Positions 26,491-53,788 of a DNA stretch of 64,000 bases are shown in pieces. The notes under the pieces were generated by a model. That model did not search any database. It had not been told where the DNA came from and saw only the letters and a program-made list of their open reading frames with translations. Position 1 is the first letter of the stretch. Every line of letters begins with the position of its first letter. The stretch is taken from the sequence record MZ234025.1. The stretch is one strand, 5' to 3'. A program made the translations under genes and the position numbers. This DNA is from Escherichia phage vB_EcoM-172859UKE1.

Positions 26491-28816
<2,326 letters not shown>

Positions 28817-51826: not shown

Positions 51827-52342
51827 ATGAATATTTGTTTAGGCAGTACAATTCCTAAGGGTTACGTAATTGATGTCACTACTTGGGAAAATGACGGCGA
51901 CAACTATAAAACCAAAACATTATTTGGTGTGGAAGAGCATGAGCTCCAACAGTTTAAATATCTCTTGAAGAAATTTAAGAGTCGTCATTCTAGCACTAAA
52001 GCTGAACGTTACTGTGGTAATACACCATTCAGTGATTGCTCGCTTTTAATCTATGAATACTTGGTTGAAGGACTGTTCTCAGACCAGCTTTATCCAGAAT
52101 TCATTAAAAAGGTCTTTGGTATTGAAGTCGACCTTGGTGATAAATCTGAAGAAGACGAAGCCCGCGTATTCGACCTGTTCTTTGTGAAAGGCGATGAGAT
52201 ATCTCAAGGACTTATTGATATTCTTGGCTATGCTTCTGAATACTACGACTATGATTTCTTGCGTGTAGTTGAACGTGTTGAATTCGCTTATATTGAAGAA
52301 GAAATTGTTTTGCCAACTGTTAAAATGATTGATTTGCTTTAA
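51827..52342 (+). CDS. hypothetical protein (171 aa)
   Basis: ORF with GGTGAG SD. Confidence 0.5.
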   Translation: MNICLGSTIPKGYVIDVTTWENDGDNYKTKTLFGVEEHELQQFKYLLKKFKSRHSSTKAERYCGNTPFSDCSLLIYEYLVEGLFSDQLYPEFIKKVFGIEVDLGDKSEEDEARVFDLFFVKGDEISQGLIDILGYASEYYDYDFLRVVERVEFAYIEEEIVLPTVKMIDLL

Positions 52343-52421
52343 GAATTATGTGGTATTATTAATTCATACCCTCTATTACCAAAGGTGCTCTAAAGTGCCT
52401 TTCATAATAGAAAGTTATTTA

Positions 52422-52496
52422 GGCCCTGTAGCTCAATGGGAGAGCTGTCAGCTCATAACTGATAGGTAGCTGGATCGAAACCAGCCAGGGTCACCA
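52422..52496 (+). tRNA. tRNA, anticodon CAU (Met, or Ile if C34 is modified), CCA encoded
   Basis: Manual cloverleaf: acceptor GGCCCTG/CAGGGTC, D-stem GCTC/GAGC, anticodon loop CTCATAA, T-stem GCTGG/CCAGC, 75 nt. Confidence 0.8.
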
Positions 52497-52499
52497 ATC

Positions 52500-52576
<77 letters not shown>

Positions 52577-52594
52577 ACTTTAAGTGAGGAAAAT

Positions 52595-52939
52595 ATGAAA
52601 GGCAATATTTATCTGGTAGTTCATGACTTAACGTTTTATTTTAACGAACGTGAAACAGTTATTTCCGACCGGTTGATTAATTCGTTATATCAACACGCTG
52701 ATTACGTTTATTTCCAAAATGAATTTGGCCATTGGAAGTTTCTTAAAAACCGTTCAGGGTTAACTAGTTTTGAATACTTTGACCGTAAAGACCTTTTAAA
52801 CGAAATTCCATTACAACATCGGTTCCAGAAACGCGAATCACTATACTATTGTCGTCATATACCAAATGCTGAATGTGTTAATGAAGCGATTAATCTATGG
52901 CGGCGGCGTCGAGAGCAAATTGATGATATGCCAAAATAA
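52595..52939 (+). CDS. hypothetical protein (114 aa)
   Basis: ATG 52595 with GAGGAAAA SD just after tRNA-Arg; track ORF overlaps the tRNA and is rejected in favour of this start. Confidence 0.5.
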   Translation: MKGNIYLVVHDLTFYFNERETVISDRLINSLYQHADYVYFQNEFGHWKFLKNRSGLTSFEYFDRKDLLNEIPLQHRFQKRESLYYCRHIPNAECVNEAINLWRRRREQIDDMPK

Positions 52940-53099
52940 GAAGCCGGGTCGCTACCGGCAAGTCGTCGGACTGATGTTCCCTGAGTAAGGACTGGTCTTA
53001 ATAAATCTTTACGATTTGTTAATATCCCCTTACATCACAGCAGAAACGGCGCACCGAATTATCGATTCGAGGAAATATCTTTGCCGTAAGCCGAGTAGC

Positions 53100-53200
53100 G
53101 TTTTTGACGGAACGTTCGGATATGGTCGAGATATGGCCTTTTAAAAATATTGAGTAGCGTCAACTGCTTAATAACCGGGTTCGAATCCCGGCGTTTCGTA
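53100..53200 (+). ncRNA. tRNA-like structured RNA (canonical T-arm CCGGG-TTCGAAT-CCCGG; possible small stable RNA or degenerate tRNA)
   Basis: Perfect T-arm at 53175-53191 with putative acceptor pairing CGGAACG(53108)/CGTTTCG(53192) giving 92 nt, but no convincing D or anticodon arm. Confidence 0.3.
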
Positions 53201-53250
53201 CAAACACTTGCCTTAGCAGGTGGAACCCCGACAAGGTTGCCGCAAGGCTT

Positions 53251-53278
53251 AGCCCCTTCCGAAAGGTCGGGGCTTTTT
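53251..53278 (+). terminator. rho-independent terminator (AGCCCCTTCC-GAAA-GGTCGGGGCT + T5)
   Basis: Stem with GNRA loop plus T-run; same family as 11139 and 53795. Confidence 0.6.
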
Positions 53279-53323
53279 GGCATAATAATAAATAGATAAG
53301 TTAATTAACTTAGGAAAAGCAAC

Positions 53324-53788
53324 ATGAAATCATACGCTGAATTTTTGACTGAACAATCTAGTTCAGATGTAAAAGCCGCTGCGATTGCAGCAATTCAAGC
53401 AGGTAAATATTCTTACAAAGACGCCTCTGATGAAGAACGTTTCCGTTTTATTAGAGATTTTAAAGCCGAAGGTTTTACTAATGCTAATACTGTTAGCCGA
53501 GTTTTTAAAAGCCTAGCTGCATCAGGTGAATTGTTCCAGAAAGCTACAGGTAAAGCACCTGCGCCAAAAACAGACCCTAAAGCAGCTCAAGAAAAAAATA
53601 TCGCCAAAGGAATTATTTCTAAGTATGAAGCAATTCTTAAAGAGCTTTTAGTAATCAAAACAGAAGGCCAGAAACTGGCACGAGCACATAGCTTCAAAGA
53701 TAATCCTCACGCTCATAGCCTTGAGTATGTTGAAGATATCCAAAAACTTATTAAAGACCGTATCTGGTCTGCTAAACAAATTAAATAA
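53324..53788 (+). CDS. internal-protein-like protein with CTS-like N-terminus (MKSYAEFLTEQ..)
   Basis: 154 aa; N-terminus resembles the capsid targeting sequence with an L-x-E site. Confidence 0.5.
   Translation: MKSYAEFLTEQSSSDVKAAAIAAIQAGKYSYKDASDEERFRFIRDFKAEGFTNANTVSRVFKSLAASGELFQKATGKAPAPKTDPKAAQEKNIAKGIISKYEAILKELLVIKTEGQKLARAHSFKDNPHAHSLEYVEDIQKLIKDRIWSAKQIK

Follow-up and report, generated by a model that had tools for sequence, protein, structure and literature searches.

The species 1 and species 2 RNAs of bacteriophage T4 (rnaC and rnaD) have been known since the 1970s, and one T4 study classed both as late RNAs. A passage in one publication, citing Broida and Abelson, places a middle promoter just upstream of the T4 transfer RNA (tRNA) cluster, whose transcript takes in every tRNA of the cluster and stops beyond the species I gene (PMC2330249). 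The roles of the two RNAs were described as unknown in a review of post-transcription in T4 (PMC3014915). A 2022 omics study detected both in T4 by RNA sequencing and northern blot and called their function unknown (PMC9697503), as did a 2025 study in which rnaD of a T4-like phage acquired one convergent single-nucleotide polymorphism (SNP) during adaptation to the host ECOR34 (PMC12685909). No comparative structure for T4 RNAC was found in the searchable literature, outside which the classic primary papers lie. Here we analysed a stretch of 64,000 nucleotides (the window) from Escherichia phage vB_EcoM-172859UKE1 (sequence record MZ234025.1), in which an earlier note, made from the letters alone, had flagged about 340 nt downstream of a tRNA pair (52940–53280) as a non-coding, tRNA-like structured region. 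The flagged region is the 3′ end of the phage tRNA operon. It very probably consists of rnaD, rnaC, a trailer and a terminator, with rnaC being a tRNA-derived RNA that does not decode.

Identification of rnaD and rnaC

A megablast search with positions 52300–53700 matched 810 phage records. The best match was Escherichia phage moha (Mosigvirus, 99.8% identity), followed by further Mosigvirus (RB69-like) phages; judged by sequence similarity, the window is that of a Mosigvirus, an RB69-like T-even phage. A sensitive BLAST search with 52940–53300 returned 806 records. RB3 and RB59 carry annotations of rnaC and rnaD at this place, and in the Mosigvirus phages ATK47 and ATK48 an rnaC feature is annotated beneath the match. 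The ends of the two RNAs were placed by aligning the window with T4 (NC_000866), RB3 and ATK47 and transferring the annotated ends:

52936–53055, + strand: rnaD (species 2 RNA) orthologue, 120 nt, aligned to the T4 and RB3 rnaD features
53062–53200, + strand: rnaC (species 1 RNA) orthologue, 139 nt, aligned to T4 and RB3, with agreeing rnaC coordinates in ATK47

The homology of rnaC extends over its full length, with 139/139 positions identical to RB3 and 137/139 to T4. rnaD aligns with T4 rnaD over its full length as well, directly 5′ of rnaC; its 5′ 45 nt and 3′ 25 nt are near-invariant and its centre is variable. A covariance model of rnaC, built including the window sequence, finds a single copy in the window (169.9 bits). 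What the earlier note had taken for one structured element is, in the alignment to T4, RB3 and ATK47, rnaD followed by a 6-nt spacer, rnaC and an 85-nt trailer. One of its suggestions, that the region is the counterpart of the small stable RNAs of T4, is borne out by the end-to-end alignment with T4 rnaD and rnaC. The RNAs are orthologous to those of T4 (T4s001 and T4s002 in NC_000866), and in both phages the tRNA operon closes with rnaD, a 6-nt spacer, rnaC, the trailer and the terminator, in this order. The present phage differs from T4 in having a 114-aa open reading frame (ORF) between tRNA-Arg and rnaD, in an rnaD 3′ end that reads CCG instead of CCA, and in the central part of rnaD, for which at least four sequence variants exist among the homologues.

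Predicted fold of rnaC

The fold of rnaC was predicted with RNAalifold from 30 sequences (28 distinct), and an expanded set holds 35 distinct sequences from about 10 genera. Slid pairing partners and 500 shuffles served as controls for the pair counts. RNAalifold returned a four-way junction unprompted, with compensatory changes in 21 of 36 pairs. The elements of the model are:

53063–53069, + strand: 5′ strand of the acceptor stem, CGAUUCG, pairing with 53192–53198 (RNAalifold)
53070–53072, + strand: 5′ strand of helix P2, AGG, pairing with CCU at 53137–53139, in the D-stem position and closing the rod (RNAalifold and minimum free energy, MFE)
53075–53134, + strand: long rod with the hexaloop UUGACG (53104–53109) and the first copy of GAGTAGCGT (covariation and MFE)
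53135–53136, + strand: unpaired conserved GG beside the 3′ strand of P2, candidate analogue of G18/G19
53148–53173, + strand: hairpin H4 in the anticodon-arm position, with the hexaloop CGUCAA (53158–53163) and the second copy of GAGTAGCGT (MFE)
53175–53191, + strand: T-arm CCGGG-UUCGAAU-CCCGG, the loop of which is the tRNA consensus
53192–53200, + strand: 3′ strand of the acceptor stem, CGUUUCG (53192–53198), U53199 at the discriminator position, and A53200, the annotated last base
53104–53163, + strand: kissing pairing of UUGACG (53104–53109) with CGUCAA (53158–53163) (comparative)

With the kissing helix included, 99.0% of the cells are paired in the 28 distinct sequences, compared with 36–47% in the slid controls, and 98.9% are paired in the 35 distinct sequences. 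Changes on both sides occur in 22 pairs, and none of the 500 shuffles reached the observed values. The window sequence folds into the junction alone, with an MFE of −50.2 kcal/mol (z = −4.55; 0/200 shuffles as low), and single-sequence folding reaches the complete architecture in 21 of the 28 distinct sequences. The earlier note had proposed folding with covariation from related phages; this yielded structure beyond chance, by shuffle z-scores, and covariation in both rnaC and rnaD.

The compensatory changes are spread over the variable helices. In the rod, all five pairs of the terminal stem and 7 of the 8 outer pairs have changed on both sides, and in H4 this is true of 8 of 9 pairs. At the middle pair of the T-arm, 16 sequences have G-C and another 16 have U-A. 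The third acceptor pair is A-U in 14 distinct sequences (the T4 and Mosigvirus types) and G-C in the other 21, and it is never broken. Two central U·U mismatches in the acceptor stem are invariant. P2 has no covariation, with one invariant pair and two that deviate only by single unpaired cells, which speaks neither for nor against this helix.

The T-arm had been recognized in the earlier note and is present as described, at 53175–53191. A second T-loop-like 11-mer in the window, GGTTCAAATCC (27401–27411), lies inside a 611-aa minus-strand ORF, has no flanking stem and is a chance match. The acceptor pairing made by eye needs correction. The pairing of CGGAACG (53108–53114) with CGTTTCG (53192–53198) is possible, with 7 bp including one G·U, but it is not the conserved register: it shows no compensatory changes, and 13 of the 28 distinct homologues break pair 52:141 and 7 break pair 53:140. 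In the model, CGGAACG comprises the last two bases of the UUGACG loop and the 3′ strand of the terminal hairpin of the rod, and the partner of 53192–53198 is, on comparative grounds, the 5′ end of rnaC itself (53063–53069). The direct repeat GAGTAGCGT was correctly located at 53093, and its second copy, given as 53153, starts at 53152. No further copy exists in the 64-kb window, and the two form the 5′ sides of the terminal hairpin of the rod and of H4. Two further hairpins drawn by eye near 53125–53138 (AUAU/AUAU and GGUC/GGCC) are not kept in LC53 or in the homologue L026 and were replaced by the rod.

The two hexaloops can form six Watson-Crick pairs in 35/35 distinct sequences. In the Marfavirus copies the loops read UUGGCG and CGCCAA, so that both sides have changed; these five distinct sequences, from one lineage, are the only copies so changed. 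In the VPA32 and Marfavirus copies, a folder restricted to nested pairs joins the 5′ half of the rod hairpin to the 3′ half of H4 in one helix (about 17 bp in VPA32). Such a strand exchange between the rod hairpin and H4 is a possible alternative conformer.

The conserved GG, just 5′ of the second strand of P2, would occupy the position of G18/G19 if the rod is an insertion in the D-loop. A contact of GG 53135–53136 with T-loop positions 55 and 56 (53181–53182), as in the tRNA elbow, is suggestive only. The first contact would be G·U in 30 sequences and C-G in 4, and the second G-C in 35/35. The C-G cases belong to the LC53 (with Kc304 and Virsaitis27) and CIP9-like lineages, in which the GG reads CG, a G stands at T-loop position 55 (window equivalents 53135 and 53181) and the T-loops, UGCAUCC and UGCAUGC, are non-canonical; a concerted change of an elbow-like contact would agree with this. 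On the comparative evidence as a whole, rnaC is a strongly constrained, tRNA-shaped RNA with conserved loop-loop pairing.

Comparison with tRNA and tRNA-like RNAs

rnaC shares with canonical tRNA (RF00005) an acceptor stem formed by its 5′ and 3′ ends, a T-arm with GGUUCGAAUCC (a 5-bp stem and a 7-nt TΨC-type loop, followed by the acceptor 3′ strand that pairs with the 5′ end), a discriminator position, tRNA-gene-like spacing in tRNA clusters and, possibly, an elbow contact in which the GG meets T-loop positions 55 and 56. It differs in its length of 139 nt, the rod of about 60 nt in place of the D-loop, the two U·U acceptor mismatches, and an anticodon-position hairpin with a 9–10-bp stem and a 6-nt loop that is paired with the rod loop. 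The failure to fold canonical D and anticodon arms by hand agrees with these differences; a 7-nt anticodon loop is lacking. Both ARAGORN and Rfam at gathering score call tRNA-Met and tRNA-Arg only and leave the flagged region uncalled, so the clean tRNA call that might have been missed by hand was not found. A permissive Rfam scan of 52850–53350 yielded no family for rnaC or rnaD even at E ≤ 10. Its best sub-threshold match of tRNA type was tRNA-Sec (RF01852; 16.6 bits compared with a cut-off of 47, E = 1.6), an identity that we reject at this score; the match also falls in the register that uses the unsupported acceptor pairing.

The tRNA-like domain of transfer-messenger RNA (tmRNA) and the bacterial Y-like RNA YrlA also carry an acceptor and T-arm minihelix on a non-tRNA body and are presumably matured by tRNA enzymes. 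rnaC resembles them in this attachment. It differs from them in that no tag frame or pseudoknot ring was found (by ARAGORN only) and no Rfam match appeared at E ≤ 10. ARAGORN finds no tmRNA in the region, and pair 3:70 of rnaC is A-U or G-C, not the G3·U70 of tmRNA.

rnaD and the 3′ trailer

rnaD is a separate, non-tRNA-like RNA with a 5′ hairpin and a stem that closes on its 3′ end. It is followed, beyond rnaC, by the trailer:

52943–52959, + strand: rnaD 5′ hairpin, R-CCGG-GUCGCUA-CCGG-Y (consensus fold)
52962–53054, + strand: long-range closing stem of rnaD, 52962–52968 with 53047–53054 and C53052 bulged, enclosing inner stems and the hypervariable centre
53201–53285, + strand: 3′ trailer with a hairpin at 53205–53222, two small hairpins and the terminator (terminator scan and consensus fold)
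53251–53278, + strand: predicted intrinsic terminator, a G+C-rich stem at 53251–53274 with a GAAA loop and a T-run at 53274–53278 (U-run in the RNA)

The consensus fold of rnaD has 97.9% of its cells paired, compared with 28–51% in slid controls, and the window sequence has an MFE of −38.1 kcal/mol (z = −3.27; 0/200 shuffles). The hairpin CCGG-GTCGCTA-CCGG of the earlier note is present at 52944–52958 and belongs to rnaD. Its basal pair co-varies (A-U in 10, G-C in 7 and G-U in 2), and its other four pairs are invariant. The closing stem is invariant in 7/7 pairs in 19 sequences, and four pairs of the inner stems have changed on both sides. We rejected a tRNA-like reading of the rnaD 3′ end (...GCGCACC(A)): it has no complementary 5′ strand and no T-arm, and the consensus fold pairs part of the 'CCA'. 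The invariant rnaD loop GUCGCUA (52948–52954) is complementary over 5–6 nt to GUAGCG in both repeat copies of rnaC (53095–53100 and 53154–53159). A pairing between them was not retained, with about 0.4 such matches expected by chance and the repeat present also in phages without rnaD.

The terminator at the 3′ end of the region, proposed in the earlier note, is present, and the consensus fold places one compensatory pair in its stem. The trailer hairpin at 53205–53222 is conserved. In some Mosigvirus records (moha, RB69, ChristianSchoenbein and mar005p1) a second place matches part of the query, and in record L021 a second terminator-like copy of the last 37 nt of the trailer lies about 600 nt downstream (1114–1150). 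A second copy was not found in the 64-kb window.

Distribution among phages

More distant phages have the rnaC part only. They include EcS1 (Kagamiyamavirus), KM16 and NM4.3 (Moonvirus), myPSH1140 and VPA32 (Karamvirus), Melville (Gelderlandvirus), LC53 (Winklervirus), PEi20, Kosakonia 305 (Kanagawavirus), Ursula and the Klebsiella Marfavirus group. Where tRNAs are annotated or predicted, rnaC takes up a gap of about 150 nt that has a tRNA gene on either side (Phe/Trp or Trp/Gly); in Kagamiyamavirus, Moonvirus, Karamvirus, Gelderlandvirus and Winklervirus it sits between tRNA genes with spacers of about 5–7 nt. In the opposite case, C6 (Dhakavirus) has rnaD and the trailer, and rnaC is cleanly absent, as confirmed by the covariance model. 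The presence of rnaD alone in C6 and of rnaC without rnaD in five genera indicates that the two RNAs are independent modules. The base 5′ of the acceptor stem is U in most rnaC copies, and the Marfavirus copies encode U-CCA after the acceptor stem where the T4-type copies have U-ACA.

Viral, metagenome and genome collections, scanned by pattern, yielded T4-like contigs and G+C-rich chance matches, and nothing else. The chance matches (actinobacterial genome contigs, two more from the metagenomes and nine from a relaxed viral scan, these last in G+C-rich or unrelated contigs) are all rejected by the covariance model. Most public records leave rnaC and rnaD unannotated, and many annotate 'hypothetical protein' coding sequences over them (F48 gp274, VR7ORF148c, NM4.3, Ursula CDS0182 and Kosakonia 305).

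Neighbourhood of the locus

Upstream of rnaD, the operon contains the following features:

52333–52359, + strand: T4 middle-promoter-like site, MotA box TTTGCTTTA, 12-nt spacer and TATTAT (sequence match)
52422–52496, + strand: tRNA-Met (CAU), called by ARAGORN; Rfam tRNA 59.4 bits
52500–52576, + strand: tRNA-Arg (UCU), called by ARAGORN; Rfam tRNA 71.1 bits
52595–52939, + strand: 114-aa ORF, RB69ORF150c-like, PHROG 3355, between tRNA-Arg and rnaD

The promoter-like site ends 63 nt upstream of tRNA-Met, and the operon transcript probably starts there. No late-promoter motif TATAAATA was found within 52200–53100 with up to one mismatch allowed. rnaC is part of the tRNA operon and precedes its terminator. 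The promoter-like site upstream together with the terminator downstream agrees with the single T4 transcript that stops after the species I gene (PMC2330249).

The 114-aa ORF has no Pfam match and runs, with its stop codon, into the start of rnaD. In T4 and RB3, rnaD directly follows tRNA-Arg and the ORF is absent at that junction. The ORF looks like a cassette inserted at the border between the tRNA gene and rnaD. In the alignment, the codons at its end (ATG CCA AAA TAA) fall opposite the tRNA 'CCA' junction of T4 and RB3.

Discussion

The rnaC orthologue keeps the shape of a tRNA: in the model, a seven-position acceptor stem is joined by a canonical T-arm lying immediately 5′ of its 3′ strand, the rod of about 60 nt would occupy the D-loop position and the 9–10-bp hairpin that of the anticodon arm. 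It would not be able to decode, because the loop in the anticodon position has six bases and is paired. The tRNA-gene-like borders suggest that rnaC is released from the polycistronic transcript by host tRNA-maturation enzymes. RNase E and RNase P probably process the T4 precursor. In the window, the predicted RNase P cut is at C53063, which lies one base within the annotated start; this cut is likely because the acceptor and T-arm minihelix is the element that RNase P recognizes. An endonuclease would cut in the single-stranded ACAAAC that precedes the trailer hairpin, and 3′ exonuclease trimming would then make the 3′ end of rnaC. The CCA-adding enzyme may then act on this end, since the Marfavirus copies encode U-CCA at the place of the U-ACA of the T4 type. 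The 3′ end of rnaD would be the trimmed product left upstream of the RNase P cut.

What rnaC does after its release can be proposed only tentatively. Our best guess is that it is a tRNA mimic that occupies a tRNA-binding protein, such as a processing enzyme or a defence nuclease of the host that targets tRNAs, and takes no part in translation; we regard this as possible, not as probable. The fold fits the tRNA mimic that the earlier note had listed among its options. In a more specific and rather doubtful version, the rod would lock the anticodon-equivalent loop by the 6-bp kiss, or the RNA would dimerize, leaving the acceptor, T-arm and elbow free for a tRNA-binding protein; rnaC would then serve T4-like phages of enterobacteria as an anti-defence decoy or sponge against tRNA-targeting nucleases or tRNA-sensing immunity.

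Several observations weigh against parts of this interpretation. Detection of the stable RNAs comes from T4 only. The annotated 5′ end of T4 rnaC is one base upstream of the predicted RNase P site, and the T4-type copies have no encoded CCA. P2 and the closing stem of rnaD show no compensatory change. The shuffle controls overstate significance, as many rows are close relatives and the independent events come from about 3–5 lineages. In the kissing helix, the covariation amounts to one position and one evolutionary event. The kiss is equally allowed within one molecule or between two in a dimer, and an intramolecular kiss would require a sharp bend, the T4-type rod of about 27 bp being much longer than H4. 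The sole hint for a decoy is the convergent SNP, and it is in rnaD, not in rnaC (PMC12685909).

Other functions are conceivable for an RNA of this kind. The region could be a cis module that shields the 3′ end of the tRNA operon from exonucleases and gives RNase P and RNase E an entry, its excised pieces persisting as they are well folded. This is unlikely, in our view. In every case the region is found at or within a tRNA cluster, with the trailer and terminator as its end, T4 deletions covering the tRNA region are viable, and a function in trans is not reported in the searchable literature. However, the rnaC of five genera lies within the cluster, flanked by a tRNA on each side and well away from the terminator, where it cannot serve as a 3′ cap, and the invariant loops, the U·U mismatches and the conserved T-loop exceed the needs of a stability element. 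It is more improbable still that rnaC, rnaD or both regulate phage or host mRNAs by base pairing in trans. They have been labelled 'small regulatory RNAs', a label given without evidence (PMC9697503); the rnaD SNP arose convergently during host adaptation (PMC12685909), and a sub-threshold isrK match lies on the opposite strand (16.5 bits compared with a cut-off of 50). The two most conserved single-stranded loops of rnaC, however, complement each other and are not free seeds, and according to a review no trans-acting small RNA has been characterized in T4 (PMC3014915).

There is little to recommend the idea that rnaC is aminoacylated and takes part in translation, be it as a decoding tRNA of an unusual kind or as a rescue RNA resembling tmRNA. 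The acceptor and T-arm minihelix with its discriminator base, the CCA encoded in Marfavirus copies and the tRNA-Sec match would suit such a role. They are met by the lack of any tRNA or tmRNA call by ARAGORN in the region, a tRNA-Sec score far below 47 on an unsupported acceptor register, the six-base loop engaged in loop-loop pairing where seven bases are expected of an anticodon loop, a pair 3:70 that is not the G·U needed for alanine charging of tmRNA, and a tag frame not found by the ARAGORN tmRNA scan, the only search made for it. The two remaining ideas are contradicted by the covariation and the indels. A functionless decaying tRNA, another option of the earlier note, would account for a T-arm and acceptor being all that remains of a tRNA and for the failure of tRNA finders; it is scarcely credible for an RNA that about 800 phage records contain, that shows 99% pairing and compensatory changes in each of its variable helices across about 10 genera, and that is detected as a stable RNA in T4 (PMC9697503). 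We give even less credence to the small proteins that several GenBank records annotate here, among them F48 gp274, VR7ORF148c and NM4.3. The region does contain ORFs of 42 and 49 aa on the + strand and of 74 aa on the − strand, but single-base indels separate the homologues, the substitutions are compensatory for RNA pairing, and the alignments indicate that the ORFs are unconserved between genera. The absence of a credible ORF, as stated in the earlier note, is upheld.

The element itself is already known: it represents, in the RB69 group, two T4 RNAs that are annotated in some related genomes and were discovered about fifty years ago. The covariation-backed fold of rnaC, which we did not find in the searchable literature, corrects the acceptor pairing drawn by eye. 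As no Rfam family matches and spurious small-protein annotations are many, a curated model would improve the annotation of phage genomes. The comparative model names the exact bases to mutate and compensate, which makes the old question of function easier to test. If true, a role of rnaC as a decoy would explain why it is strictly conserved despite being dispensable in laboratory strains.

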